Shown here: piece after piece, positions 1 through 20,288 of the stretch | Layout of the letters: every line of letters starts with the position of its first letter | Numbering within the stretch: position 1 is the stretch's first letter | Made by a program: the position numbers and the translations under genes | Notes under the pieces: generated by a model | Databases searched by the model: none | Seen by the model: the letters and a program-made list of their open reading frames with translations, nothing else | What the model was told of the DNA's origin: nothing | Assembly: GCF_038025025.1 (NCBI RefSeq) | Contig: NW_027117342.1 | Coordinates: 1,302,001 to 1,366,000, forward strand | Length of the DNA stretch: 64,000 bases | Origin: Phyllosticta citribraziliensis | Lineage: Eukaryota | Direction of reading: 5' to 3'

Positions 1-2030
1 GGTTGCGTGAGGTACATGTTGACAACCTCTGCAGGCTGCGCAAAGTAGCTGTGGAAGAGATCCTTTGCCCAGGCAATCGTGTGCTCGATCCTGTTGGGGA
101 AACTCCTGAGAGTACACATCGGGAAAGACTGCTCGGGGGGATCCTGGGAGCTAGAGTACGACTCGGTGATGTTGGGCAAAACGACCTGGGTGTTGCCCTT
201 GGTGCCAAGAGTACCGCTGTCGAGTAGAGGCTTGCGGAAGAAGACGCAACGACGGTCGACGTAGGTACGAGCCTCGACGTTGTCAAGAGCGTTGGTGACA
301 CCATCAAGGTTATTCCAGAAATCCTCGTTGAAAATATGCTCGGTATCGGCGCCCACCCGTTCCCTAAGAGTAACAATGTGACCCTTCAAGTCAGGGTTCA
401 TGGCCTGCACCGCCTCCGCAGCGCAGTCGCTCTTCAACTTGCCTACATCCTTGGGCCTGAACAAGAATTGGCGGTTGAGGTTGCTCTTCTCGATCTGATC
501 CATGTCCGTCACCCAGATCTTGCCCTCCGGTCCAGCACCAACGCCCATCATCGCCCAGTTCTTCAGCATCTCGCAGCCAATGGCACCGGCGCCGACCAGG
601 AACTCCTTGACGTTGGCGAGCTTGTCCTGGTATTCCTTGCCAAAGACTGCGATCTGGCCGTCGTAGCGGGTTCCGAGTGGCTTGCACGAGTCCTCAGAGC
701 GAGTGGTCGAGGAAGGCAGGGACTCCAAAGAGTCAAAGTAGAGCCATTGCAAGATGGGGTGGAACTTTCCGGACACAGACTTGAGGACTTCTTGTGCGAC
801 CAGGCCACCAAAGAAGGCCGCGATTGGGCTCAGGTCACCCTGGGCTTGGAAGCTCAGCTCTTTGATGATCTTCTCATCCAGCTCCACCTTGTCCTCACCC
901 TCGCCGGCGAGGCTTTGGGCAATCTTGAAAACTTCGGCCGCATCTGCTTGGTGGTGTGGTCTCGGGAACACTCCGTTGTGTTGCTCAGCAAAGGCATGGA
1001 GCGCCTGAACACCAACGTGCAGTTGCGGGGGTCGGTCGAACTTGGCAAAGTCTGATTCCAAGATTTTGGGCTTCTTGAGCTGTTCGCTGAGAGGCTCAAA
1101 GTCCATGATCTTTGGCATCTTGACCTGGTGGAACAAGCCACCGCGCTTGTACTGGCCCAATCCAGAGACATCGCCAATGTTGAAGGTGTATGGGCCCTTG
1201 ACGGTAACCTTTCGAGGAGCGGATTCGTTGAGGCCTTCCATACCCTCCAGTTCAGAGAAAGTAACGTAGTCGCCATCCTCGAGACCGTGCCTCGTCTCGT
1301 CCAGCGCTGAAACCGTGCCATCTTCGTCGATTGCCGCAACAATCCCGCTAGTCGGGTTCTCTCCAGTTGGGTCGCCGCAGGTAAAGTTCTTGCCGAAATC
1401 CGTGAAGACGTGACCGAAGAGACCGAAGGTGTCCGAAATGACGACGTAGATGCCGTTTTGGTGGCAGAAGTCTGCAATCAGCAGCTGGTCGCGGAGCGTC
1501 GTGTCGGTAAGAACAACGCATTGGTACTGCTTGAGCAGACTCAAGTCGGAGGTCAGGTCTTTCGCGGCGTGTTCGCGAATGGGTACGTAGGGATTAAGCT
1601 CCGAGACTCGAGGGATGGTCACAGAGGCGCGCGGCTTGCCAACATCTTCGGGGTGGAGGAAGAACTGGGAGGAGAGGTCCTGAATAGTGGCAGGCTTGGG
1701 GTCGAAGAGCGTTAGAGACTTTACGCCTGCAAGCGCAATGTTCTTCGCAATCTCGACACCCAGACCTCTCAAACCAACGACGAGGATGTTGGAAGATCCC
1801 ATGCGCTTCATAGCCTCGTGTCCCAGGACGTACAGCTGTCTGCTGTAAAGTGACTCGTCAATCTCACCAGGTCCATCCTTGAGCTGCTCGGCCGCAGCTT
1901 GCGGGTTGTCGATCTGCATTTTGTCCTGAGAGAGCTCATAAGTATGTCGACTTTTGACAGCGCGGCGCAGTTTGAGGCCCAAGGTGGGCTGAGCCAGCAC
2001 AGAGGGCAGAAGCTCCAGACTTACCGTCAT
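1..2030 (-). CDS. UBA1: Ubiquitin-activating enzyme E1, 5' part (runs off window start)
   Basis: Manual minus-strand translation: [58 protein letters not shown], catalytic PMCTLRSFP. 6-nt first exon ATGACG (2030-2025), intron GTAAGT..CAG 2024-1926. Missing from the ORF track because the stop lies outside the window. Confidence 0.97.
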
Positions 2031-3412
2031 GATTTTTTTGTGCGGACTGCTAAGGTCCCCGTTGGACGTCTTCCTTTTCCCCAGCTTGCCTGAACCGTTC
2101 CGGTTGTCTTGCGGCGCTGAGTTGGGCGATGCGGTTGATGACGTTGTCGGGTCGTGGGGCGGAATCGTGAAAGCGAGGAGGGGAGGGCTGTGGGAGGCGG
2201 AGGATGAGATGCTGTAGAGATTGAGATAGACCTGCACGTAAAGAGGCGGCGAAGGGTCAAAGAGCGGTGCGGTGGTGCAGAGGGGTTGTGTTGGTGGAGC
2301 AGCAGGAGGCGGGCGGCACGTTGGAAGGCGGCGGGCGATGACGAGAATGAAGCAATGACCGTTTCGCCAAGAAGAGCTGCCCCACCATGAGACCCACGTC
2401 GGCCCTTTCCATCACCAACACCAGCTGCTCCAACTCCAACATCCACTGGTACCTACTTTATCCGACCAGCTCCTCGTTTCCCACTCGCAGGGGCTATCGC
2501 GAGGAGTCTACATGGACGAGTCCGACGCCTCAGCAGTCTTTCCTGGAACGTTCTTCAGACCTCAAGAAAATCTTGGGAAGAAATGGACTGTCCACCGAAT
2601 CGAATCGCCAACACACATTCGATGACAGATGACGACTTGGCCTATGAGGAGCACCGGTTGCTCTCAGCCAACCGAATCCTTCTCGCTCGCTATTGTATGC
2701 TTCGACGGCGTAGCAATCCGTCCTGGCGCTCCAATTTCCGCATCGCACAGTGAATGCCACATTACAAATTCCGTCCTTACTGGTAGAGTCATGGTAGCCG
2801 TCAACTTTTCGAACTCTCTCCCGATGATTAGAAATGCTACATGTTTGATGCCGCAAGCTCGATTTGTCATCTATGCCGCAAGCACGCTGCTGGATCCCCT
2901 CTCTTCTAGGCTACTATTCGGGCAATACATTCTTGATTTGACACAACTGCTGGTGTCAATTGTATAGACACTTCGGCAACTTCCAGAGGCTTTCCTGACA
3001 TACGCCGAGCAACGTGGGGTCAAACAGGGTTGAGGGCAAACCTTTTCACAGGCTGTTCAAGGGTAACAAATTTGCTCCGCTGCTGACGGGCGCGAAAGGC
3101 CTCGCGAACTGTGACGATCTACAATCAATGTCTTCGACCAACAAACTCTACTATGCAGGTGAAGTTGAGATGACGGCTGGGTGCGGCATTGGGTCATTGT
3201 TGTGTGATGCCCGTTGGACCAAGGCTCCAAGCGCCTGGGCTAAACTCAATCTGGAATAAAGTGGCTCAACCGTCGTCGGTTGATGTGTACTCTCCCGGAT
3301 CCACCTTTCGCTGACGCTTTCTGATCCTCTCCAACGTTACACATCTTCTTCGGGCGACCTTCTTTGCCGATCAAGTATTCGACGGCATTTCAGTCAGCAA
3401 TGCGTTACGGCA

Positions 3413-5083: not shown

Positions 5084-5532
5084 GAAATTTCCCGTGGTAC
5101 AATGGGGGTTGGCGTAATATACAGTCTGATTTGGTTCATTGGCTATAGAATTCGGCCACAGAATGTAGATGAACAAGTCTGATATGGCGGCCACTAGAAA
5201 TCAACATTGCCTTGCCACCGTGATGACCATCACCAACTCATCATGGTAAATCTCATCTGATCTAAATGAGCAAAGCGCCAAACAACCAGGCCAGAAGCCA
5301 AGAACGAGTACGAATCATGAATATGGACAAGACCAGAAACAGTCTGTTCGCTGAACCTGTACCTTTCCACCCTAGAGGCGGCGGTCATCGCTGGTGGTGA
5401 AGGAGGATGAGAAGTGGGAAGGAAGGCGGCACTTTATACTTACTCTCATGCGCAAGCACCACGGCGATATCGGTGTGGTCAGGGGTTCCAGGGTGCACGC
5501 GACCAGGGGGCATTTGTGAACGGCTGCACACG

Positions 5533-5616
5533 TGGACTGTGGACTGTGGACTGTGGACTGTGGACTGTGGACTGTGGACTGTGGACTGTGGACTGCGGAC
5601 TGCGGACTGTGGACTG
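5533..5616. repeat. Heptamer microsatellite (TGGACTG)x12
   Basis: 12 contiguous units, two of them CGGACTG. Confidence 0.97.
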
Positions 5617-5649
5617 AGAAGCATGTGCCTCCCTCTTCACAGGCCTCAG

Positions 5650-5827
5650 GTTCTCCCTTCACGGGCCTTGAATGCTTCCCGCCACGAGCCTCGAATGCTT
5701 CCTTTACGGGCCCTGAATGCTCCCTTCACGAGCCTTGAATGCTCCCTTCGCGCGCTCGAATGGTCCCTTAATAGTCATCAAGTGCTCCCTTCACGGTCCT
5801 CGAATGCTCCGGCCTCGAATGCTCCCT
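5650..5827. repeat. Degenerate 22-bp minisatellite, ~8 units
   Basis: Consensus CTCCCTTCACGRGCCTYGAATG, repeated head-to-tail with no spacers. Confidence 0.85.
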
Positions 5828-6037
5828 GCCCGTGACATTGCTCAGTACACAATGAACTCATGATCTGCGAACGCGCTCAATTTGGAGAGGAATGATGTAT
5901 TTACGTGAGCTATACCAATCATTACAACCACGATGGCAGAGGTACGAAACCAAAGGTAAACCAAAGCTATGCGTGCCAAAACGACGTAATCAACGAGGGT
6001 ATCTCGCAACCAGTTAGCCGGCCGTATGCAACACAAA

Positions 6038-7818
6038 TCAAGCCTTGAGGGCATCCGACACTTTTTCAGCCATGGCTAAGACTTTTTCCTCTTCCAGTCT
6101 GCGTGCCACGAGCTGCAGGTTGATGGGCTGGCCATCGATTGCCTCCACGTTGTCTGCACCCGCACCGTTAGTTCAGTCGTTTAGAACCAGGGAGAAGAGA
6201 GGTAGACTTACACTCGTCCTTGGTCTTCTGGTCAAACTCGTTGCGTGTCTCGCGTGTTTGGTCCTCTGCACTGAACCCGTCCACCTGCTTGTCGACCCTA
6301 AGCCCTGTCGGGAAACTGACGGCCGAGTAGTCCAGGCAGTTGTACACACACGTGTACCCCACGTATCTAAACTTGTCATGTTCGACGGCCGCGTAGGGAG
6401 CAGTAGGACAGAGGATGGCATCGAGCCCCGCCGCGTTCCAGCGGTCGAGGTACTTGGATTGCAGGTCGTTTCGCTCGAGGTGGATCTGCCACATGTTGTA
6501 GACGCCCAGCTCCGCGGCATCTTCATACGAGCGCATCTCGGGGCGGAAGGGCTCGCGCGTGGGAGCGAGGAGTGCGCGGACGGACTTGCCGCCGTCGGAG
6601 ACGAACATGCGAGCCTGTTGAACAACAAAGTCAGAAAGCTGGGGTTGTGTCAGAGGATTCTGGAACTTACGATAAGTCTTGCAGCTCTTTCATGCATTCC
6701 TTCGCTTTTCCACTCGACAATATCGTGCCCTGCCCTTCTCAGCTTGTCCACTGCAAGCTGCAAGGCCCTCCGTATCGGCGGTGTCGGCAACACGACATCG
6801 TCATCCCACAATACGCCAATCTTCAACTTCTTGGAGACATCAACCTTCCTCCATGGAATCGGAAGGCATTTCGGGTCATCCAGCCACGGCGAAAGCTCCA
6901 CCACCTTTTGCGAATACGTGGCAATGGTGGCCAAGTCCGGCGCCAGCGGTCCATTCACCGACATGACAGCTTCCTGCCCCGCCAGTCCGGATCTTGTCTT
7001 GGCCGTCGGGAAACGACCAGCGCTGGGGCGTAGAGTCCAGAGACCAGTGCAAGCAGCTGGAATGCGCAGCGATCCACCAATATCACTGCCCACGCCCAGA
7101 CAGCTGCCACCGAATGCAATCAGCGCGCTTTCTCCGCCAGAGCTTCCACCCGATGTCAATTTCCGATTGCGCGGGTTTAGCGTACGGCCGAAGACGTTGT
7201 TGACAGTCTCGGCAATCATCATCGCAGTGGGGACGTTGGTCTTGACATAGACGATTGCGCCGGCGGCGAGTAGCAAGTCGACGAGGGTGCTGTTGAAGGG
7301 CGAGGGCTTGCCCACCAGCGACGAAAACCCGAGTGTCGCATCGGTGCCACGGACTTGAAAATTGTCCTTGATAGAGATGGGAAGACCGTGTAGCGGGCCA
7401 ATTGGCTGGCCGGTGGTTGCCAGATGCTCGTCGAGAGTTCGCGCGGTGCGCAGGGCCAGGTCGAAGAGGGTCTCGGAGAGACAGTTCGTCTAGATTCTGC
7501 GTCAGGTCCTGGACAGCAAAGGAAAGATATCAAAAGTCGCACCAACTGATGGGCAGCGCTCGCCCTTTTACAAAATGCCTTGGTCACTTGCTCGGAGCTG
7601 TACTTGCCACTCCTCAGTCTCTTCAAGAGGACCGTCGCCGACGAATTGGTAATCTCCAGCTCCTCAGCGGTGAACCACCCCGACTTCTGGGGGAATGCGG
7701 TCACGTCGAGCTGGGATTCGGGCGGCAGGATGTTTGCGGGGATGCGCCACTCTTCGGGGATGGAGTCGAGCAGCGCAGCGCGCTTTTTGGCGGCAATTTC
7801 TTTCCACGATCCTGGCAT
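6038..7818 (-). CDS. Amidase-signature family enzyme (acetamidase AmdS-like), ~4 exons
   Basis: WKEIAAKKR..SIPEEWRIP start; GPLHGLPISIKD, KTNVPT, GGSSGGE, GSDIGGSLRIPA (Ser-cisSer-Lys triad motifs); C-terminal LQLVARRLEEEKVL; stop 6040-6038. Confidence 0.95.
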
Positions 7819-8441
7819 GACTATGAGCGCGATGGAAAGGCGACGCGGACGAGAGGAGGTCGGGACGTACCATTTCAATATTGTGGAGTGGTGGTGGTCG
7901 GCGTGTAATAGCTAGACAGCCGCCCACTTTTGGCGCATCGGCTCGGCATGTCGGGATGCTGTGGTTGGGTGTTAATCGCGGCGTCATCAGGCAATATCCC
8001 ACCATGGGTCCCGGGTGAGCACTTGGGAGGCCGGCAACCCGTGGCGCCTGTTTACGTTCCTGCGCGCGGTCCGGGAAGGGTCTGGTCCTTTGCCGGGCAT
8101 GATGCGGCTTGGAGATTGAGGCGCTCTTCCAACAGACTCGGGCATGACAGTCTCTGGATTTCCTTTCCAAACAAGTTCAGATAGCAGAGGGGTCCGGCTA
8201 TCAGGGCGAGATGGAAGAGGAGGTGGATCAGCCGAGATGGAGGCGTGGAGAGGGCCCAAGGTGGACGCGCCGATCCCCGCTAATCCAACGCTTGCACATT
8301 GTGGAGAGGCGACGATCCTTGACAGAGAGGAAGAATGCCATGGACGTCATCTGAGCATTGAAGCCATGACAGGGCAGAAGCGCAACTTTCTTTGCTCGTT
8401 TGCACAAAGACAAAGGTTGAGACCATCTTCGCGCGACGTTG

Positions 8442-8524
8442 AAGTAGAATTGTGGGTCTCTGACTCGCGCCCTTATCCTGCCCGTCGACCACAACCCCGG
8501 GAAACCACTTATCAACCTATCGCA
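8442..8524 (+). repeat. Direct repeat copy 1 (83 bp promoter module; pairs with 14357-14440)
   Basis: AAGTAGAATTGTGGGTCTCTGACTCGCGCCCTTATCCTGCCCGTCGACCACAACCCCGGGAAACCACTTATCAACCTATCGCA; differs from copy 2 by 2 substitutions and 1 indel. Confidence 0.97.
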
Positions 8525-8776
8525 TTGATGCGGCTCAGCACCATACGCGCTCGTCTATCCCGCGACTGCTCTCAATTAATTAGCTGGATACTTTCCATTA
8601 CCTACCATCAAAGCCAAACCTTTAAGCATCAAGCGGAGAGAATGGCACAGGACCTGTGAAGAGAGGGAAATGTAGGGCACTATGCACGCAACAAAGTGAA
8701 TGAGAATCAGAAATGCATGAAATCTACATAACCTCAACGATTGACCTGTCTACCACTCACAATCTTCATTTCCTGG

Positions 8777-9441
8777 TTATGGCTCTTGGAAGCCCGAGTC
8801 ATAGCGTCCCTTCGGTCTACCCTTGCCTTGGCCTTGCTGGATGGACAAACTGCGCATGCGACCAACGGTACCTTGATCAGCCTCCCCCTCACCTGCCTCA
8901 TCTTCACAGCCCTCATGGTCTTCTTCAACGGGGACCTTCAGGGCCTCGGCAATCTTCGCATCCTATAGAAAATGAACTTCTGAATGGGGCAAAAGAATCA
9001 ACGTTGCTTACCACAATTTCCTCATCTGTCATGCCGGCCCAACGCTCTTTCTCTGTGGCTTCGCGCTCCTGTGCCTCCTCCAACCACTCCTGCGCCTGAT
9101 TGAGCTTCTTCGATAGATAGGTGATCAGGTGATCCACGGATGTGTCGTTGATGAGACGGGTGTAAAGCCGGATGGCCTCACGACCGTGGGCACTAAAGTA
9201 GGACGCAAATTAGCTCTTTTCCTGTGTCTTACACTCGGCATTCTTACACAGGGCCATGGTCTGACTTGGTCAACAGTAGATGCATGTTGGCGGCGTGGTA
9301 GTCACCAAGTCGTGGCTCAAGAAGAAGCTCATTGGCGAGGCGGAAACCTTCTTCTTTGTCGCCGGCACGGGCGCGTTCCCACGCGTTGTCGTCACGCCAT
9401 TTGAACATGAGACTCAAGTTGGAGGCGCGTTTGGGTGACAT
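8777..9441 (-). CDS. Small helical hypothetical protein, 3 exons (~190 aa)
   Basis: MSPKRASNL..LLLEPRLGDYHAANMHLLLTKSDHGPV|AHGREAIRLY..coiled acidic segment; intron GTAAGA 9247 to TAG 9193 with a CTAAT branch point, second intron ~9010-8964; stop TAA 8779-8777. Confidence 0.7.
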
Positions 9442-10652
9442 TTTGGTGAAGAAGATGATAAGAGAGGTGGGAGGTCGAACTGAGGAGGTTGCAGCTTGAA
9501 GTATTGTTGAAGAAGGACCGGGCGAAAAATCATGCTTGGTGTTTGGCTCGCCTGCCTAGAGCCCCAGGGCGCATACATTTCAGGTCTAGCGTACTGTAGT
9601 CATTTGTCGAGCTACATGGCAGCGGAGGCTTGCATGAGGAAACGACACTTGGTTGGCAGCAAAAGTCGTGGCACACACAATCCGAAAGCTCTGCAAACGA
9701 CCTTACCAGGATTTGGCTTGAATGCTCCCTGACGGCCTCCCGACAGTGTTGCATGTGGCCCGACTTTCATGACCAAGCCTCGAAATTGCCCTAGGACTCC
9801 GCTCACCATCCGTTTTCGATCATAATCATAGTTCTTGTATGGTATATCGGCTGGTCTCTTGTCAAGCTAAGGGAATGCATGTTGTCGCCCGGATGTGAGA
9901 GGGACTGCACGACAGCGAGAAGCCGTAGGATTGCTTGCGAAAACAAGACATAAGAATGCTGCGTGTCATAGACAATCAGTGCGTGCTTGTCCTGGCGTTG
10001 GCACACTGTTGATTGCAAAATAGGATTGCTTCATGATCGCAATGTGAGGTGAGGCAGATGAGAGACCAGTGTCTTCCTGAAATGACCTCAAAATTTGAGA
10101 AAGACAAACATAAAGGGTGCATGAAGAAAACAATTTTCCAATGAGCAATCGATTAAATGGAATACCGTATCAAGTTCCGCAATTCCCCACTCACTTGAGG
10201 CTCGTTTGATCAGTCATACGTCCACAACTCATTGGCAAAAGCTTGCATCAATTGCTGCCAGAGGGAAACCGGGAATCTATGCACTTATCTTGACTAGCAA
10301 CAATCAGCTTCAAAGTACATATTGAGCAGGGCAGGCTTGTGCGCCGCGGCCGCAAGTAACGTCAGAGGAGAATACAGTCCCATCGCTAGGTCGACTCTTC
10401 TCTATTGGTCGTTGAATTCTGAAAGTTCCGCCATACTCCCCTCGACTTCCACTCTTCAACTTCCGCTCGCACACTGTCCCGCGACTCCACAACGGCCGAG
10501 GTTCTTTCTGTGTGTTGAAGGATCTGGAAGGACTTTGAGGCGGTAAGTACCAAAACTCTGATCAGACTTGGCCCAAATACTGACCACCTCGTCGAGAAGT
10601 CAACTCGGAATCATCACTCTTCAATTCGACCGTACCCGACCGTTCTTTCGAA

Positions 10653-13562
10653 ATGTCCGAACGTAACCTTCGCTCCGGCGCCAAACATGGTCGCTCGCAC
10701 TCGGACGCCACCAACGTGTTGCAATCAGCTCCCATTTCCAAGCGATCCAAGGGCAAAAACGTTGCGTCTTTCTCGGACAATCTTGAGACGACGACGGGCC
10801 CCGGAAAGGAGCATGACCAACTTTCCAGTACAAAGGGCTCTGTTTCTGCGGAAGACGTTGGATTCGATTATCGAAGGTCGCAAAAGCAGACGATGGCAGA
10901 CGCAATCAAAAACATCAAAATCCTCAACTCTCGGGAGAGAACGCCGTCTAATCCCCTGGTTCAACCATTCAGGGAGTTGTTGTCAGCCACCCCCTTGCAA
11001 GATCGGCAATTCAAGACTCGGGTGGTTGAGGCTCTCTCATCCCGTAGGGGCAACCCCCCCCGCTGGTACATCATTGCGGTGGAGAGCGACATACCCTACT
11101 ACTTTGCTCGGGTCCTCCAAAGCCAATTCAGTGAAGCCCAGGCTCAGCAAATGTGTCAGCTACTTGTCGATATCTTGAACCGGTGGCCTGGCAGTGAGGC
11201 GACGTTAGCCTCCAAAGAACCGATGTCGACCTGCAACGTCCCCGCTGATCATCTCCCCTTGATGGTGATGATGGAGACGCATTTATTCCCGAATAGGCCC
11301 ATTCGCATCAGATGTGCTTCCTACAGGGGGACCAAGCATCCGGTAACTGTCAGCCTTCAGATCAAGCTGATAGATCCCACCACAAGGAAACCCTACTTTT
11401 TCTCCCAAACGTACTCTGTATCTCAAATGCCGGCCAACGCCCAAGTTCCCGAAGTCGGCGACAATGTTGTTGTCAACTACGTTGGCAAGGCTCCAGACGC
11501 TTTCGAGGGAAAGGATCAGTCGGGCTCCTTCAGATCTAATTTGCCAGCTTCTGGAATCGACAACGCGACGAGATCGAAGCTCGAAAACTGCGAGCGGCTT
11601 CTTCGCCACCTTGCTGTTCGACTCTCTCAGACACTTATCAATGAAGATGCGGCGAAAGCCATTGGCGATCACCTTCTCGATACGCTCGCAGGAGGTCGCA
11701 AGACCTTGGTAAAATCTGGTCCTTACGGTAAAAAACGACTCGTGTACCCGATTCGATATATTCAGCGCCGTCTGTGGAAGATCGTACATGGGGAAAGCGT
11801 CCTCAAAGATGTGTCGGAACCGTTTCCACCTTTCTTTGTCTATTCACTCGACAGGAGATGGGTCATTCCAGTCATCGACATCATGGAGACGACATGGTTG
11901 CAGGGAGGAAGCCTCCACGAGGTCTGGACCGTCGGGGCTGAAGCTGCCGACAATGTCAATGCCCTGATCCGCACTGGTGACATGCCACCGGGGTCTTGCG
12001 ACTGTGGTCCCGAGTCGTCTCGATCAGAAATGCATCCCTGTCAAAAATGTGCAAAGCTTACGCCGTGCGCAGCTTTGACGTATGGCTTCTTGCGGTTTCG
12101 ATTATGTGCAACTTGCCACGAGCGGGACTCCAAGCAATCAATGTCGTTACCGGAGCAGCTGGCTGTCTTTTACGTCAAGAACATGCTGGACAGTAATGCT
12201 CGGAAGACTGGAAGAAGACACGGAGACTCAAGTGAACGTGCGAAAAAGGACGCGGCCGATGAAGTTTCTTCGATTTTCTCGGAGCATTCTCCAAATTCTG
12301 TTGAGTTCACTGACCAATACACTGGCTGCGTAGAGCAACTCTCCACGGATTCGTCCCATGGCAAGACCCCCAACGCTCTCACCATTGATGCAGTCTTTCC
12401 TTATGGATTCTTTCAAGAAACAGCCTTCATCCACTGTCGCGGAAACCTTGCCGTGACCACACTGGTCATGAACTACGCCAAACATATCCAAATCCCGGCG
12501 TTTCTCGTTGCATTGAAAGACTGGATTGTCGCGGAGCCAAATTGCCGAAACAACCCTGCACAACTCCAGCGATTGCAGTCCGATATGGTTGCACGTTGCT
12601 CCACACTTTCGGCTATTCGTCTCAAGGCAGCCTGGACCATCAAAGCCCGCGAACGTACCAAGTACAATCTCGGCAAGTATGAATACGATCGCGAAGAATG
12701 GCTCTCCGGAAAGCTTCGCAGTGGCGAAGCCGGCCCTTGGGACAAGCGGTCGGACCTCTCTCTGACAAGTGGCTTCAAAGTCCCCGCTGGCGATTTGAAA
12801 GGATGGCCTCAAGCTGAGATGAAGCGTATCAAACGAATCGTCCAAGAGATGAAGGCATGGTTTCAAGTCGATCTTCCTGAAAAGAACGGATGTCCATACT
12901 TCGCGCACCCCGACACCATGCCCTCAACCTGGTCTTGGGGCCTCTGCTTTGCCATTGTCACATGCCGGCGTATTCGAATGGAGTTGCATTGCAACCGCCA
13001 CTTCCCTACGGTCGACACCGCAGAGACCATTTACTTGGAATGTATCTTTGTTGCCCTCGTCACCATCTGTGTGATCAAATCGAATGACCCCGACAAAGCG
13101 CTCAAACTCCGGTACAAAGCCAAGTATCTCGAGTTCCTGCGACTTCCCCTGAACGTGCGGCATCACAACCCGCTGACTTTTGTTGTCGCGCACCGCATCC
13201 ACGGTGCACAGATGGCATCAGGTTGGCGACCAAGCCCGCAGAGTTTCTCAGACCGCATCGATTCACTCAACAACATGCTCATCGAAACGAGGACTTCGAA
13301 TTTTGCAAAGCACAACTTCGACAAGGACCACTGCGATCTCATCAAGCACATGCTCAGCCAAATCGATCTGCCGCTGACGGTCTATGACCCGAGTGTCAAC
13401 CTTTCTCCAGCCAACCGCAAATACCGGAAAGACTTCGAGACCGTCGACGACGACGAGGACCTTGACCTTGACGATGGTTTCGGGGAACTCCTTGATCAGA
13501 TGGAGGACGACGAAGACGACGACGTCATCGACGCCGATGAGGAGGAGGACGATGAGGACTAG
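10653..13562 (+). CDS. 969-aa intronless protein with Cys/His cluster and two HNH-like (His-Me finger) motifs; putative nuclease
   Basis: Uninterrupted 2.9 kb ORF; CDC..HPCQKC..C..CATCH (aa ~449-489); repeated motif N-x4-T-x3-N-[YF]AKH at aa ~600-611 and ~875-887; acidic tail. The ORF itself is certain; the nuclease function is inferred. Confidence 0.8.
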   Translation: MSERNLRSGAKHGRSHSDATNVLQSAPISKRSKGKNVASFSDNLETTTGPGKEHDQLSSTKGSVSAEDVGFDYRRSQKQTMADAIKNIKILNSRERTPSNPLVQPFRELLSATPLQDRQFKTRVVEALSSRRGNPPRWYIIAVESDIPYYFARVLQSQFSEAQAQQMCQLLVDILNRWPGSEATLASKEPMSTCNVPADHLPLMVMMETHLFPNRPIRIRCASYRGTKHPVTVSLQIKLIDPTTRKPYFFSQTYSVSQMPANAQVPEVGDNVVVNYVGKAPDAFEGKDQSGSFRSNLPASGIDNATRSKLENCERLLRHLAVRLSQTLINEDAAKAIGDHLLDTLAGGRKTLVKSGPYGKKRLVYPIRYIQRRLWKIVHGESVLKDVSEPFPPFFVYSLDRRWVIPVIDIMETTWLQGGSLHEVWTVGAEAADNVNALIRTGDMPPGSCDCGPESSRSEMHPCQKCAKLTPCAALTYGFLRFRLCATCHERDSKQSMSLPEQLAVFYVKNMLDSNARKTGRRHGDSSERAKKDAADEVSSIFSEHSPNSVEFTDQYTGCVEQLSTDSSHGKTPNALTIDAVFPYGFFQETAFIHCRGNLAVTTLVMNYAKHIQIPAFLVALKDWIVAEPNCRNNPAQLQRLQSDMVARCSTLSAIRLKAAWTIKARERTKYNLGKYEYDREEWLSGKLRSGEAGPWDKRSDLSLTSGFKVPAGDLKGWPQAEMKRIKRIVQEMKAWFQVDLPEKNGCPYFAHPDTMPSTWSWGLCFAIVTCRRIRMELHCNRHFPTVDTAETIYLECIFVALVTICVIKSNDPDKALKLRYKAKYLEFLRLPLNVRHHNPLTFVVAHRIHGAQMASGWRPSPQSFSDRIDSLNNMLIETRTSNFAKHNFDKDHCDLIKHMLSQIDLPLTVYDPSVNLSPANRKYRKDFETVDDDEDLDLDDGFGELLDQMEDDEDDDVIDADEEEDDED

Positions 13563-13704
13563 TGGTTTTGAGGTTGGCACTCTGGTGTTGGCAGCTTCTG
13601 GTGGGTGGTACTTCTGACGACGATGTCGCCTGATGGTGTCGTGAAAAGACTTTCCTTTTTTTCATGGTGTCATGACTGCATGTTGCGATTTGCTTTGAGT
13701 TTCA

Positions 13705-14001
13705 TTCAAGAAGGAAATATTGGCAGATTCCTGGAAGCTACTGCTGTGTGGGGTTTCTGGTGGTGATGGTGCCTCTAGTGGTGGTGGCGGCAGTGATTTT
13801 TCCTTTTTTTCTTTTGTCCCTTTCGCCTTTCTGTTTCCGAACATGTTTCAAGAAGGAAATATTGGAAGATTCCTGGAAGCTTCTGCAGTGTGGGGTTTCT
13901 GGCGATGATGGTGTCTCTGGTGGTGGTGGTGGTGGTGGTGGTAGCGCCAGTGGGGTTTCCGTTTTCCTCTTGTCCTGTCTTCCTTTTTGCTTCCGGTCAT
14001 G
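13705..14001. repeat. Imperfect tandem duplication, ~142-bp period
   Basis: TTCAAGAAGGAAATATTGG[C/A]AGATTCCTGGAAGCT.. begins at 13705 and again at 13847; copy 2 has an expanded (GGT)n. Confidence 0.9.
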
Positions 14002-14264
14002 TCATGAGTGCGAGGTGAGGTGTGCTTTGAGTTTTTAGATAGAAAAAAACGTTGGATGCCTGCTCACAGCCCAGCTGAGGTCCAATTGACATTGCTTCCA
14101 TTCATGTGCAATGTGCGCCTTGACACGGACTCAGGTGATGGAGCATAGAGGTGTGGACGCCCGAGGCGCGGTCAATCCTTGTATGAGGTCCGAAACATCA
14201 TGATCCAGGAGTCGAGATCTCGCCGAAACGTTCGCCGTCGCTGGAGAGAAGTGTCTTTTGACTA

Positions 14265-14348
14265 GGGATTCAGAGCAGCCTGCACCAGAAAGCCGGTCTC
14301 TCAGGGTGGCGCTGGCTCTTCATCATCGATGGTCTCATAACCGTGCCC
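14265..14348 (+). pseudogene. 84-bp fragment of a diverged homolog of the adjacent MFS transporter
   Basis: Encodes GIQSSLHQKAGLSGWRWLFIIDGLITVP versus GIQSSLHHKAGLSGWRWLFIIDGLITVP at 15307-15390; 11 nt differences, all at third codon positions. Confidence 0.95.
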
Positions 14349-14356
14349 TTAACCAT

Positions 14357-14440
14357 AAGTAGAAATGTGGGTCTTCTGACTCGCGCCCTTATCCTGCACG
14401 TCGACCACAACCCCGGGAAACCACTTATCAACCTATCGCA
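14357..14440 (+). promoter_or_regulatory. Direct repeat copy 2; GATA-rich promoter module upstream of the MFS gene
   Basis: Contains CTTATC twice and CCTATC once (GATA sites on the minus strand, AreA/Nit2-type) plus CCCCGG (CreA SYGGRG on the minus strand); ~210 bp upstream of the MFS ATG. Confidence 0.7.
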
Positions 14441-14648: not shown

Positions 14649-16340
14649 ATGGGATTTTCAGAGACTGTGAGGGCGTATTTTCGTCCCTCACAATCCACGA
14701 AAGAGGAACGCAAACTGGTGCAAAAGATCGACTTTTTCATCCTCACTTTTTGCTGTCTCAGCTACTTTTGCAACTATGTACTTTGGCCCTGAACCTCTCT
14801 CTGCTCTCGAACCTCTTCCAACCCCTGACGTATTTGCTGACCACTATATCTAGCTTGACCGTTCCAACCTCACAAATGCCTATGTCTCAGGGATGAAGGA
14901 GGACCTCTCCTTTCACGGGAACCAGCTGACCCAAATCAACACGTACGAGAGCAGATCTGCGACATTCCAACTATACAGATGCTGATGACATGCCAGCATC
15001 TTCTCCTGTGGCTACATTGTAGGCCAGATTCCGTCCAACCTGGCACTGCACTATGTCTCACCTCGAATTTTCTTCCCCTCGATGATGCTCATATGGGCCG
15101 CTCTCACCATGGCGACGGCTGGAGTGCACCGGCCAACCGACATCATGGCGATACGCTTCTTCCAAGGCATGGCCGAAAGCACAACATTCGTCGGGACGCA
15201 CTACATCCTCGGATCGTGGTACACAGCGCGCGAACTGGGAAAAAGATCCGGCATCTTCACCGCCAGCGGGCTCGCCGGAACTCTTTTCGGAGGGTTTATT
15301 CAGAGCGGCATCCAGAGCAGCCTGCACCACAAAGCCGGACTGTCCGGGTGGCGCTGGCTCTTCATAATCGACGGGCTCATCACCGTGCCTGTCGCCATCT
15401 ACGGCTTCCTCCTCTTCCCCAATACGCCCGCTACCACAACGGCCCCGTACCTGTCGGCGCGCGAACGCGCCCTCGCCCGCTCCCGCGTCCCTGCCGAGGT
15501 GGGCGCCTCGCACAACCAGGCAGACGGACACCAGGCGTCGCCACTGTCGTGGAGGTTCCTGCGGCGCGCGCTGACCTGCTTCCCGCTGTACGCGTTCGTG
15601 ATACTGTGGATCGTTGCGGGCGAGACCGAGTCGTTCAGCACCAACACGCTGCTGGCACTGTACATGAAGAGCTCGCCCACGCGGTCGTACACGGTGCCGC
15701 AGCTCAACGACTACCCGACGGGCGTGCCGGCCGTAGGCATCTTGTCGACCCTCTTCTTCGCCACGCTGACCGACATGCTCGGCGGCTGCCGTTGGATCGT
15801 TGGATACTGGATCGGCCTGACCGGCATCATCACCAGCGCCATGATTCTCGCTGCAAAGGCGAAGGGAGGCGACGAGGCCCTTATTTTCGCCGCGTATTAC
15901 TGGGCTGGCAGCGTCTACGCGTGCCAGGCCACGTTCTTTGCTTGGGCCAATGACGCGATGAGGGGCGAGGAGGCCATGCTGAGAGGCCTTGTCGTCGCGT
16001 GCATGAACATGGGAAGTAACGTAATTAACGCGTGGTGGGCCATTGTGTTCTACTCGGCCGATTTCGCCCCCTGGTTTACTGTGAGCCCAACCCCCCTTTT
16101 TCGCCAATGTCGTTTTTCAAAACTCCTGAAACTGACCTTTTGCAGCGCGGCATGTGGGCCATGATTGGCACGTCCATCGCCCTCGCCCTGTGGACGACCG
16201 TCCTGATATGGTGGACTCGCAAGACGAGAAAAGATCCCATGGCGTTTGTTGGTTCCGACGACGTCGTGGTCGAGGGGCAGCGAGGAGAGACATCGAGTGA
16301 CGTGGCAGACGGAGAGGAAGTGACGCCCGTAAAGGTTTGA
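14649..16340 (+). CDS. MFS transporter, anion:cation symporter family (pantothenate/allantoate permease-like, Liz1/Fen2/Dal5 group), 4 exons
   Basis: ERKLVQKIDFFILTFCCLSYFCNY|LDRSNLTNAYVSGMKEDL, LGSWYTARELGKRSGIF, GLSGWRWLFIIDGLIT. Confidence 0.93.
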
Positions 16341-16803: not shown

Positions 16804-19800
16804 TCACTCTCTCGCCAACTGGGTGTTGATCTCCCACAAGCGCATCGTCTGGCCCTCCCTTGATCGCTTCTTGCTCGTCTCCTTTCCGCTCTGCTCTGTC
16901 AGGCGGATCATAGCCAAGCTCGACTGTGCAAACGCTTCGACAAGCTCCCGCATACGACCCGTGTCGACAAAAGTGCTGGACAGGGACTCGTTGCCCGGGG
17001 CAGCGATTGCGGTTGCGAGATCCATGCATCGGGTGATGTTGTCGCGGCCGACCATGTGCGCGGCGCTGTGGAGGACGCTGTTGTATGCGAGGATGACTTC
17101 GGGGAGATAGGCGCGGGAAATAAGTGCCAATGTTTCTCTCTCCATGTCTGCAAGATTGTTAGCTTTGTCAATTCCAAGGAACGCAAAGGCGAAAACGTAC
17201 CAACGCGCCAGCAGGTCAAGAAATTGTCGAGTAGTGGCTGCATAGCCTCGACAACACGTTCCAGTAAATCTCGAATCTTGTTCTTGGGAGGCATGGGCGC
17301 GCCATTGGCTTTCATCCTGGAGAAAAGTTAGCCTCCAGCTTTCAGTCTTGCCGAAATCCCGCTTACTTGATGAGTTCCTCTTCTTCGATCCTCCACTCGT
17401 CCAGCATTCTTATGGCGTGGATGAGCTGTTGACACTGATAGTAGACCCTTCCGGTGGTTTGGAGCGCCTGTCGGTACCAGGAAATGTCATGTTGGAAGCG
17501 GGGAGAGAGTGAGCCGCCTTGCATCTCGGCAGCAAATGGCTCATTGTCATCCATAATGTCGATTGCACGGTTTATGTGTTTCATGTACCGAGTCTTCAAC
17601 TTCGAGACTTGGATGCAGTTGAGACGGTCAATGAGCTTGACTGCTGAACCCAGTCGACCTTGCCTCAGGAATAGCTTTGCAGCCCCAGTCAAAGCGTCAA
17701 AAGTGTCTTCCCATCTTTCAGGAAGGTGCATGTACCACTCGCAACTCCGCATCAGCTGTTCGTCTTCAAGAGGCACATGTTCCGGCAAGAAACCCAAAGT
17801 TATACGATAACCAGGCCATTGATTGTGCTTGACTGGCTCCAAGATCGTGTACTTTTCAATGTTAGGGTGACCAGATTCCGCATTGGCGTACGACAACATC
17901 AGTTGCCGTTCGAGGACTTCGTCAACGTTGATGCCGTAGTCTTGCATCAACTTGACCTGAATCTGTTGCTCCTGATGGTTGCGAATGTCCGTGAGAGCTG
18001 AAGCAAGGGTCTTCAACGCGGTGTCCGGCGACAGTAGCGAGGCATACAGCGGAACAAGTTCAATCTTGCCAGCCATCCGCAAATATTCGATGTAGCCGAC
18101 CAAGACGCTTTCGTAAAAATGCACTCGGCTTGAACTGTGCCAGGGCATTCCCAGGCCCCTGAAAATAAGAAGAATGTGGGCGGCGATTCGCAGAGCGTCG
18201 TAGTCCCGAGCCAGGCGGACGAAGGGCTCTTCAACTGGCCTGTCTATTGCAGGGAGCAAGAACGAAGAGCCGTTTTCATTGGCAATTTGACACAAGGCGG
18301 CACCAAGTTGGCCAGCAATGCGGTCAAATGTCTTCGCGATCAAGGCACCCTGGATCATCTTCATTGGCTCCGCGCCCTCCACCATTGCCGTCTGGTGTCT
18401 GTGCAAGTGACCGATGATGAAGTCGTTTTCGTTGGTGGCATTGTCTTGAGGGTTCCACATGCTTGGTGGAGAGCGAAGGCGTGCGCTGGGTTTTACCGAC
18501 ATGAAAGGAAAGTTTTGATGCTGCCAGTGCTGGAACGAGGAGACGAGGACATTGTTGAGCCGCACGTGGAGGAAGTCGTCCCAAGTGTTGCATACCGGGT
18601 CCACAGATGCAATATCGCCGGCGAGAAATCCAAAGACGGCCGCTTCGTACTCGTTCTGGCCGCCCAGGGCCGCGGCATAACAGGTGTGACGCCACAGCTC
18701 GCCGCAGTTTCTGCTTCGTGCCGAGTTTCTTCGGTCCTTGCCGTCAAAGTCCTCGTTTGGAAACGACTTGCCCAGAGCAACAGCCCGCCACTGCTCGTTG
18801 CGCTCAGAGCACCACTCCCAAATGGTCTGCCAGGACGCACCGCGCCTTAGCATTTCCCAAAGAGACATCCAAATCGCCTTTTCATATTCTTCGTCTGCTT
18901 TTTCAAGAGCGCGTATCTGGCGGCTCGGCGCGTCTGGGTCGAGGTGTGAGACGAGGGGTTCGCCGGTGTCGTTGCGCTTTACTTTGGACAGCGCGTTGCG
19001 ATCCAATGGGTGCATGCGCTTTTCGTGCTTCAGCCTAGATTTGGTATCTTGCCATCCTTTGGACCAAGTTCCGGCGCCTCGTCCAAACTTTTGATCCACC
19101 ATGACCGAGACGTCCTCGTTGGCCTCATCGGCTGTTGTCTCCAACCAGCGCAGGATAAGATCTTTTTCGCGAGCCGTATCGTCCTCCACGAGAAAGCGAT
19201 CCCACACCTGGCCTGGGTCCGAGTACTTGTCAATCCTCGTCCTGGCCAAGAGGTCTTGCTTAATCCTCGAAATGTCTGTTCCTGGCTCCTGGTAGTTGTG
19301 CTCGACCATGATGCGGAGCAATTCCCAAGTAGCGACCTCGGCTTTGGACTGCTCGAGGAGTGTCCGCGTGTCGCCTGAACCGATGCCGACGTCTTCTTCC
19401 ACAGACTGAATTATCTCTTCTTCCCGAACTCTTTCCAAACGCTTGTTGGGTGCACCGCGCAACTCCTGTGCCAGCCTCTTTTTCAGGGAGCGTACGTTGA
19501 CTTCAGCCTCAGCTTTGAGTCGGAATAATAGATCCATTGTGGCGCGATGATTGGTCAAAGACGTCGCGTTGTCGTCGGCAATGGTCCTCACCCAGGTGTC
19601 CACGTTCTCGGCAAATTTCTCGACTTCTTTGCCCACGCGCTCAGCCATTGCTTGCAGTGGATGGAGGTCTTCATCACGCGGGCGGTACATGAGGCTGAGG
19701 GTATTGGTCGTATCGGCTTCGCGCGCAATGTTTTCGTCCAAGTCTGGTCGCAGCCTTCTGTGCGGCTGTTGCAGGTCTCGCGACCTCCGGTATAGGGGAG

Positions 19801-19804
19801 CCAT
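16804..19804 (-). CDS. NUP84: Nucleoporin Nup84/Nup107, 3 exons
   Basis: LVSHLDPDAPSRQ, WEMLRRG..WCSERNEQWRA..LG, YEAAVFGFLAGD, TWDDFLH, terminal YLPEVILAY; GT-AG introns near 17366-17319 and 17200-17149. Confidence 0.92.
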
Positions 19805-20288
19805 GGTGAGGAAAGCTCGTGGCACGGAGCAGGTGAGTGACAAAGAAGGGGATGTCGAATTAGGCGGAGCAGCGCTGGGTTGCGCCGGACAGGTGTGGGG
19901 GAACAGCAAAGACACGCGCGAACGACGGTGATGCGTCGAGGAAGCTCCAGCACGCGCTAGGGCTCAATGAGTGCTAGTGCAGCCGGAGAACAGCCAGACG
20001 CCTGCGGGCGGTGACCATGGTGCTTAGTCATAACCTAAAAATTCTCGTCTATATCTTCGCGTCGCACTCTGGACTCTCTTTCCCCATTACAATGTCTTTA
20101 ACCAAGGTGGTCTTTTAGAGTCGCTATTCAACACTTTCTCAATTTTTGAATGGTGCTCACGACCACCTGAGAGCGACGCGCCTCGTCTACTTATTGCTCG
20201 ACCCCCTCGGGGGACTGAGAGTCAGTTCAGGAATATCTTGGCGTAACATTGCATTGTGTCTGTCTACATGTTGAGGTGGAATTGGGCT

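Follow-up and report, generated by a model that had tools for sequence, protein, structure and literature searches.

The HNH-like gene and its product

The 64,000 nt window analysed here, from contig NW_027117342.1 of the fungus Phyllosticta citribraziliensis, carries a long open reading frame (ORF) for a protein of 969 aa (P0001 in the searches below), referred to as the HNH-like protein. Its conserved core joins a cluster of cysteines and histidines to two regions that are predicted to fold as the strand-strand-helix element of His-Me finger (HNH) nucleases. The protein represents a new tandem His-Me-finger family and is probably a nuclease with its catalytic site in the second domain. The positions of the gene, its domains and its neighbours are given in Table 1.

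The ORF has the limits, strand and length reported in a first-pass annotation made from the sequence alone, and is uninterrupted by stop codons. The same annotation described the gene as intronless, which is plausible because every conserved block of the family sits within this single ORF. No second copy of the gene was found within the window, and its G+C content at third codon positions (GC3) is 0.61, slightly lower than that of its neighbours (0.64–0.78).

A public model of the same P. citribraziliensis protein exists as an 890 aa 'hypothetical protein' (P0002). It is identical to the product of the ORF except for the absence of aa 442–473 and 514–561 (nt 11976–12071 and about 12192–12335), both removed in frame, and it probably treats coding sequence as introns. 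The two missing stretches encode six of the eight conserved Cys/His ligands described below, together with a conserved tyrosine (Tyr556), and the public model is therefore probably mis-spliced, at the cost of most of its zinc ligands. In the sequencing runs examined, no reads covered either stretch.

Upstream of the core, aa 1–374 are conserved in only a subset of relatives, and a search of the Atlas with this region gave no usable match. It contains a basic stretch (KRSKGK, aa 30–35) that could be a nuclear localisation signal. At the other end of the protein, the D/E-rich tail noticed in the first-pass annotation is borne out by residue counts, and other members of the family also carry acidic stretches after the core in the alignment. 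The basic stretch and the acidic tail would fit a nuclear protein that handles DNA; that the tail acts as a self-inhibiting DNA mimic is only a guess.

Table 1. Coordinates of the HNH-like gene, its parts and neighbouring features within the window.
Feature	Residues (aa)	Position (nt)	Strand	Basis
HNH-like gene, complete ORF, 969 codons and stop	1–969	10653..13562	+	ORF listing, translation
N-terminal region, no recognised fold	1–374	10653..11774	+	alignment; no Pfam match
Cys/His cluster, CDC-x9-HPCQKC-x5-C-x12-CATCH	449–489	11997..12119	+	regular expression
Domain A: helical hairpin, beta hairpin (YTG), first strand-strand-helix	495–640	12135..12572	+	DSSP, DraIII and phrog_1035 matches
Motif 1 (DQYTG...NYAKH)	554–611	12312..12485	+	regular expression
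First beta-beta-alpha element	576–610	12378..12482	+	DSSP of predicted model
Domain B: GCPYFAHP hairpin, three helices, second strand-strand-helix	735–915	12855..13397	+	predicted model, VIA
Motif 2 (FLRLPL...NFAKH)	828–887	13134..13313	+	regular expression
Second beta-beta-alpha element	842–886	13176..13310	+	DSSP of predicted models
Acidic C-terminal tail, 28 D/E in 44 residues		13428..13559	+	residue count
Ubiquitin-activating E1		3–2411	-	window annotation
Stray MFS fragment, 31 codons		14265–14357		90% protein and 88% DNA identity to neighbouring MFS residues 107–137 (15307–15398)
MFS transporter		14989–16164	+	window annotation
Nup84/107		17363–19963	-	window annotation

A large family in filamentous ascomycetes

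The first-pass annotation had taken the protein to be an orphan, and this is refuted by an exhaustive search of 1.84 billion representatives, which recovered 442 clusters of relatives at E ≤ 1e-3, of which 262 pass a cut-off of 1e-10 and 101 one of 1e-30. Most matches begin at about aa 375–400 of the query and span aa ~375–965, while about 25 of the 150 matches listed reach into the N-terminal region (aa < 170). A word-index search returned P0002 and hypothetical proteins of six Fusarium species, about 30% identical to the query, and a distant member is found in the lichen fungus Bacidia gigantensis. The named members (Phyllosticta, Fusarium and Bacidia) thus come from three classes of filamentous ascomycetes, and the taxonomic range rests on these few names. 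On its sequence relationships, the gene belongs to a large, unnamed protein family of the Pezizomycotina. Divergence within the family is very wide (22–35% identity). The best match outside Phyllosticta is 33–35% identical, and the Fusarium members are 45–83% identical to one another.

Curated sequence models, including Pfam HNH, HNH_2, HNH_5 and Endonuclease_7, matched neither the query nor the relatives scanned, and an NCBIfam scan of eight family members was equally negative. With no curated Pfam match, the family is new at the sequence level. The only significant Pfam matches among the relatives were a PHD finger in two proteins (P0067 and P0130) and a C2H2 finger in one (P0033), additions that may direct the protein to chromatin or DNA in certain lineages. 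When the family profile was run against PDB sequences, a DksA/TraR-type zinc-finger row over the Cys cluster was not significant (E 0.21).

Searches of viral and environmental sequences added little. A tblastn search with the motif region and P0040 against 50,697 phage records found no match, and among IMG/VR viral contigs scanned with the family alignment there were 22 pattern matches and no true relative. Metagenome contigs from JGI yielded one locus, of 1,349 nt, which is too short for context.

The Cys/His cluster and the two motifs

The Cys/His cluster lies exactly where it had been placed in the first-pass annotation. Its conservation, like that of the other positions discussed here, was assessed on 158 family proteins aligned to the core profile, with denominators that vary by position. 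All eight ligands are strongly maintained: C449 in 108/116 proteins, C451 in 104/114, H461 in 110/114, C472 in 108/114, C463 and C466 each in 114/114, and C485 and C488 in 114/116. The cluster is modelled as small strands with a predicted local distance difference test score (pLDDT) above 90, and this pattern of ligands presumably represents a two-zinc module.

Motif 1 was likewise found at the position originally given. The sequence of motif 2 is real, but the limits proposed for it (13125–13319) were slightly off and are corrected in Table 1. An AlphaFold2 model of the core (aa 375–930, built from a 64-sequence alignment) has a pLDDT of 93.1 and a predicted template modelling score (pTM) of 0.91; a separate model of domain B (aa 730–920, 75 sequences) reaches 95.8 and 0.90. 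Secondary structure assignment by DSSP gave strand-strand-helix at both motifs, with pLDDT above 90, as the first-pass annotation had anticipated. In motif 1 the strands are aa 576–580 (LTIDA) and 599–603, followed by a helix at 604–610 (model of aa 375–930). The corresponding strands of motif 2 are aa 842–847 (TFVVAH) and 875–879, with a helix at 880–886, and these are the same in both models. Each motif has its first conserved Asn at the start of strand 2, and its other conserved Asn and its Lys are part of the helix. In the models, then, both elements match the beta-beta-alpha arrangement of His-Me fingers.

The residues that define this pattern are conserved across the family. In motif 1, the Asn residues are N598 (132/135) and N607 (122/136, with 12 Gln), and K610 is found in 132/137; D579 is Asp in 108 and Glu in 23 of 134 proteins, P583 is present in 119/134, and H594, four residues before N598, is close to invariant (133/135). 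In motif 2, the equivalent values are 119/123 for N874, 122/122 for N883 and 119/122 for K886, with H847 in 111/126, H850 in 121/124 and E878 in 120/123. Between the motifs, at the end of the three helices of domain B, C780 (143/143) and N781 (142/143) are also retained. Overall the Asn, Asn and Lys positions are 90–100% conserved across the 158 proteins. The first-pass annotation had staked its proposal on the conservation of the N..N/AKH residues among homologues, and since these are kept, the proposal survives; only the final His of the 'AKH' varies (H611 in 57/137, H887 in 23/122).

Internal duplication and the missing general base of domain A

The pattern N-x4-T-x3-N-[YF]-A-K-H occurs exactly twice in the protein, at aa 598–611 and 874–887, as had been noted, and the internal duplication proposed from it is backed by a profile-profile match between aa 545–640 and aa 820–915 (hhalign; P 7.3e-5, probability 62.5%). 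This alignment pairs A580 with H847, N598 with N874 and N607 with N883. As a control, the rest of the core was tiled into twelve windows of 96 residues: the two that hold motif 2 gave P values of 6–8e-5, and the other ten gave P ≥ 0.11. These sequence comparisons support an origin of the two fingers by internal duplication.

The two copies differ at the position of the general base, which in His-Me fingers is a His or Tyr and stands at the end of the first strand. Domain B has His847 there and domain A does not. Position 580 is Ala in 113, Gly in 9, Ser in 7 and Thr in 2 of 134 family proteins, that is, one of these four residues in 131/134, and it is never His. Motif 1 thus lacks the canonical general base, since A580 aligns to H847 and no family member has a His at this position, and the first-pass remark that Ala replaces the catalytic His in motif 1 holds for the whole family. 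The other hallmarks, a metal-ligand Asn in the helix and an Asn opening strand 2, are present in both domains of the model.

Structural comparisons

Domain B was compared with 48,161 PDB representatives in a wide VIA search, in which only 44 chains scored Z ≥ 2. The top match was the restriction enzyme PacI (3m7k_A; Z 5.4, root-mean-square deviation (rmsd) 3.9, 119/142 residues aligned). By their titles, 18 of the 44 chains are HNH enzymes or Cas9, and two more (7enh_A and 9e8z_E) are probably HNH proteins too. They include the Gme HNH nickase (Z 4.0), eight Cas9 entries (2.4–3.5), two GeoCas9 HNH domains, EcoKMcrA and DraIII (both 2.9), T4 endonuclease VII (2.3), the HNH proteins or domains of GVE2 and ZRANB3 and of a type I-E HNH Cascade (2.1 each), and TagI (2.0). 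Not all rows are of this class: among the others, an axonemal protein scored 4.9 and a threonylcarbamoyladenosine dehydratase 4.4. HNH chains make up a tiny share of the PDB library, yet they account for nearly half of the domain B list.

In a Foldseek search with domain B, the first four rows are DraIII and the HNH domain of Nme Cas9 (E 0.2–0.9), and many rows of colicin E9/E7 DNases follow (E 2–5) amid rows of unrelated proteins, CYP51 and kinases. When the 193 chains returned by Foldseek were re-scored with VIA, nine reached Z ≥ 2, and all eight of the entries listed were Cas9 HNH domains or DraIII. The His-Me finger matches that the first-pass annotation had expected from Foldseek do therefore head the domain B list, but none of them reaches E ≤ 1e-3.

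For domain A, the evidence comes from DraIII and from phage protein profiles. Re-scoring by VIA of the Foldseek list obtained with the large model (aa 375–930) placed DraIII (4l0k_B) on model residues 121–258, equivalent to aa 495–632, with Z 4.8 and rmsd 3.9 over 119 residues. The profile phrog_1035 ('endonuclease VII') was matched by 8 of 58 relatives and was the sole recurrent PHROG beside lone weak rows. The E-values were 2.6e-5 for P0040, 7.9e-5 for P0100, 1.5e-4 for P0080 and 0.0093 for P0037, and weaker for P0031 (0.022), P0034 (0.023), P0006 (0.065) and P0013 (0.29). Seven of these matches map to aa ~454–631 of P0001, the exception being P0080 (aa 566–678). A further relative, P0099, matched an 'HNH endonuclease' PHROG over aa 454–512 only (E 0.0076). 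Jointly, the PHROG matches extend from within the zinc cluster, whose later part they include, across the hairpin and over motif 1. The wide VIA search with the whole 556-residue model was filled by matches to the helical hairpin (model 121–184; best Z 6.3) and is uninformative for the fingers. The Atlas provided weak leads to HNH, GmrSD_C, DraIII and Endonuclease_1 clusters.

Several results weigh against assigning the core to the His-Me fingers. Neither model gave a Foldseek match in the PDB at E ≤ 1e-3, and all VIA Z-scores stayed under 7–8, a level that unrelated models commonly reach according to the tool. In Pfam, a chance TAN row was all that P0001 gave at E ≤ 10, and no HNH-type model was matched by 12 close and 34 long relatives. 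The family profile found no solved structure among PDB sequences, its best row (E 0.076) falling on the acidic tail. The phrog_1035 profile was matched at E ≤ 0.1 by neither P0001 itself nor 50 of the 58 relatives scanned. With individual Z-scores this low, and the likeness to PacI, DraIII and the other HNH rows weak in each single score, the case rests on the enrichment of HNH proteins in the lists.

These results could be explained if the motifs and the strand-strand-helix elements had arisen by convergence within an unrelated, novel fold; no Z-score for domain B exceeds 5.4, and unrelated models often give middling values according to the tool. Such a coincidence is very improbable, because it would have to account for 18–20 HNH chains among the 44 best, for the alignment of PacI over most of its length, for re-scored entries that were all of one class, for the matches to phage endonuclease VII, which were obtained independently from sequence profiles, and for conserved residues that occupy the same places as those of HNH enzymes. 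Membership of the His-Me fingers is the better account of the core. As for the zinc-binding endonuclease with two fingers suggested in the first-pass annotation, its fold and residues are supported, while two active sites are unlikely, since domain A typically has Ala in place of the general base throughout the family.

Genomic surroundings, repeats and read evidence

The window has a fungal-looking G+C content (51–61%) and carries housekeeping genes with introns. In addition to those in Table 1, these comprise a SUMO-like gene, parts of a succinyl-CoA ligase and an FAD oxidoreductase. An 84 nt direct repeat (8442–8524 and 14357–14440, 96% identical) brackets a 5.9 kb segment that includes the HNH-like gene. 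Its right-hand copy is intron-like (it starts GTAGAA and contains CTGAC) and follows directly after a stray piece of an MFS gene. This piece is an internal fragment lying upstream of the intact MFS gene, apparently left behind by an earlier duplication or rearrangement. Because it is no displaced gene end, a homing cassette of the WHO-element type, which replaces gene ends, does not fit.

Read evidence was drawn from four runs, and none of the runs listed is recorded as RNA. Two of them (X2 and X5, from one organism) contain RNA, because spliced joints of neighbouring genes are present. Spliced, well-covered minus-strand transcripts were seen in these runs at 7543–8425 and 8701–9484, with GT..AG introns at 7811–7869, 8962–9010 and 9193–9247; the ORFs there had no Pfam match. 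The repeat-bounded segment thus also contains an unrelated, spliced and well-expressed gene (8701–9484). Over the HNH-like gene the same runs gave unspliced contigs of low depth, at 12400–12753 and 12840–14258, and the upstream spacer at 9903–10703 is without cover, which hints weakly at transcription of the gene.

Immediately downstream, the 3′ flank of the gene holds two copies of a sequence of ~86–91 nt (13705–13790 and 13847–13932). The copies, in which runs of GGT/GGC are frequent, share about 90% identity and lie 142 nt apart; the unspliced X2 contig that begins at 12840 passes through them. Elsewhere in the window, positions 5518–5832 comprise a 7 nt microsatellite (GTGGACT, about 14 units) followed by a degenerate tandem array with a unit of ~22 nt.

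A relative sampled in run X3 carries the entire 8495–14386 segment at about 97% identity. Its 5,881 nt contig ends within both repeat copies, as a two-copy repeat predicts. The run also contains the flanks in another version, ~11% divergent, that lacks cover over 9903–14174; no contig bridges an empty site. The missing cover may reflect divergence beyond the 85% threshold.

The HNH-like gene could instead encode the nuclease of a selfish or mobile unit, either a free-standing homing-type gene of the nucleus or the cutter of an undescribed element, possibly acquired from or shared with giant viruses, and would then spread by cutting an empty site. The intronless gene sits amid housekeeping genes (ubiquitin E1, MFS, Nup84/107 and SUMO), between the copies of a direct repeat and alongside the MFS fragment, and one X3 flank version has no cover across it. 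The identities outside Phyllosticta and within Fusarium suggest fast evolution or patchy descent, and the best structural matches of the whole core are giant-virus proteins (see below). Set against these points, there are no terminal inverted repeats around the gene and the window holds a single copy, on which grounds a transposon was rejected. Its GC3 is barely below that of its neighbours, the repeat-bounded segment is shared with an unrelated spliced gene, the X3 gap may be no more than divergence, and neither the IMG/VR viral contigs nor the phage genomes searched contained a sequence relative. A mobile-unit nuclease is thus a doubtful description of this gene.

Proposed function

The reading we consider reasonably probable is that of a nuclear protein in which an eight-ligand module and two His-Me fingers form a metal-dependent DNA endonuclease with domain B as the active half. 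The core (aa ~375–930) would consist of the zinc module followed by two diverged fingers, and DNA would be cut in the presence of a divalent metal at a site in domain B (aa ~735–915), presumed on the model to be the catalytic domain. The candidate residues are H847 at the end of strand 1, with H850 nearby, Asn874 opening strand 2, and, within the helix, Asn883 and Lys886; together they form the full set that a catalytic finger would be expected to have. Domain A (aa ~495–640), which retains the Asn/Asn/Lys set and His594 but has Ala580, would be a degenerate partner that holds DNA, so that a single chain mimics the dimer formed by HNH enzymes such as PacI or DraIII. With one such site, the protein may be a nickase, or it may use some unusual route to cut the second strand; another possibility is that domain A also cuts, though non-canonically. 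That metal and zinc are bound, that DNA is cleaved, which domain is active, the pseudo-dimer geometry and the nuclear location are all inferred.

A non-catalytic scaffold that binds DNA or chromatin, in which neither finger cleaves any longer (Smad MH1 and the ENPP proteins have inactive His-Me domains of this kind), would also account for some of these features. The general-base His of domain A is absent from every family member, the PHD and C2H2 fingers of rare relatives suggest work on chromatin, and the likeness to active nucleases is weak. Inactive His-Me domains have precedents in the superfamily survey (PMC5714182). Domain B argues the other way, because its H847, H850, N874, E878, N883 and K886 are kept among proteins of such low identity, the pattern to be expected if an active site, and not a binding surface, is being maintained. 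A scaffold of this kind is accordingly judged unlikely, and an endonuclease acting through domain B remains the preferred reading.

The fast divergence of the family and the patchiness of its close relatives are more in keeping with a selfish or conflict-type gene than with a housekeeping repair enzyme, and a selfish or conflict role is possible. A fuller version of this idea, in which the proteins are an ascomycete family of free-standing, single-chain, pseudo-dimeric HNH enzymes, each with a live finger, a degenerate finger and a two-zinc module, that have an ancestor in common with giant-virus proteins and serve in the nucleus for homing-like cutting of empty alleles or as a defence or incompatibility nuclease, is speculative and, as a whole, improbable.

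To our knowledge, eukaryotes encode few HNH/His-Me nucleases in the nucleus, and most of these are well known. The assignment proposed here would give a fold, a probable chemistry and candidate residues to several hundred clusters of large, 'hypothetical' fungal proteins that have no Pfam domain. If the proteins are active, they could be the source of DNA-breaking activities in fungi associated with plants, among them Fusarium and Phyllosticta, and would link the gene pools of fungi and giant viruses. If the selfish or conflict reading is true, they would form a hitherto undescribed class of nuclear nuclease in eukaryotes and, possibly, a new source of rare-cutting enzymes with long recognition sites.

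Comparison with known systems

Among solved structures, PacI is the best match of domain B, and DraIII that of domain A with its hairpin, although DraIII also matches domain B (Z 2.9–3.0) and ranks first for it in Foldseek (E 0.2). DraIII (4L0K) is described as an HNH restriction enzyme with H183 as general base and N202 as metal ligand, its beta-beta-alpha-metal site following helices and accompanied by two structural zinc sites in which Cys and His ligands are mixed (PMC3996161). This layout of helices, finger and zinc sites resembles the fungal core. The differences are considerable. PacI and DraIII are bacterial homodimers of 142–227 aa with one finger per chain, whereas the fungal protein has two diverged fingers in one chain of 969 aa. 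The zinc ligands of the two bacterial enzymes are CxxC pairs around each finger, and those of the fungal protein form one separate, upstream cluster. Neither bacterial enzyme has detectable sequence similarity to the fungal protein, whose domain A is also without the general-base His.

T4 endonuclease VII is a zinc-bearing His-Me finger enzyme, placed in group 13 of the superfamily classification (PMC5714182). Its phage relatives provide the profile match over the fungal zinc cluster, hairpin and motif 1 (phrog_1035), and the T4 enzyme itself (1e7d) matches domain B at Z 2.3. The phage proteins are small, single-domain junction resolvers, while the fungal domain that they match has Ala in place of the general base.

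The HNH domains of Cas9 match domain B with low scores (Z 2.2–3.5). They have the pattern D-H...N-x8-N-x2-K, with V-D-H-I-V-P at the general base. The fungal motifs share the Asn-x8-Asn-x2-Lys spacing, and motif 1 reads I-D-A-V-F-P against V-D-H-I-V-P of Cas9. Unlike Cas9, the fungal protein lacks a RuvC domain and any RNA-guided context, and sequence profiles do not link it to that family.

The only matches to the whole core came from a Foldseek search of predicted viral structures (BFVD), and these were giant-virus proteins, with E-values of 3.9e-4 to 5e-3 and probabilities of 0.98–1.00 over 409–531 columns. They belong to Pithovirus LCPAC403, LCPAC401 and LCPAC404, Fadolivirus, Edafosvirus, Barrevirus and Klosneuvirus. 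The best rows (E 3.9e-4 to 7.8e-4, probability 1.00, 467–500 columns) include A0A481ZCZ7 of Pithovirus LCPAC403, A0A481ZBB7 of Pithovirus LCPAC401, annotated as a 'Zn-finger protein', and A0A7D3V904 of Fadolivirus. Lower rows, from Klosneuvirus, Yasminevirus and Harvfovirus, are annotated as 'divergent HNH endonuclease' or 'HNH endonuclease'. The TM-scores of the giant-virus matches are low (0.22–0.30 by query, 0.25–0.40 by target) and their rmsd values high. The viral proteins are uncharacterised predicted structures of 345–586 aa and lack the N-terminal region of the fungal protein.

Fungal members of the superfamily appear only in other groups, such as HNH_2 and the I-PpoI-like enzymes, in the published classification (PMC5714182). 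A literature search, which had subscription journals outside its scope, found no account of this family or of a tandem HNH protein in a single fungal chain. Where two HNH domains are mentioned together, the phrase reportedly describes oligomers formed by bacterial Cap5 and proteins like it. The fold and the chemistry are known ones; what is new is the family itself, the pairing of a live with a degenerate finger in tandem, the separate eight-ligand module and the look-alikes in giant viruses.

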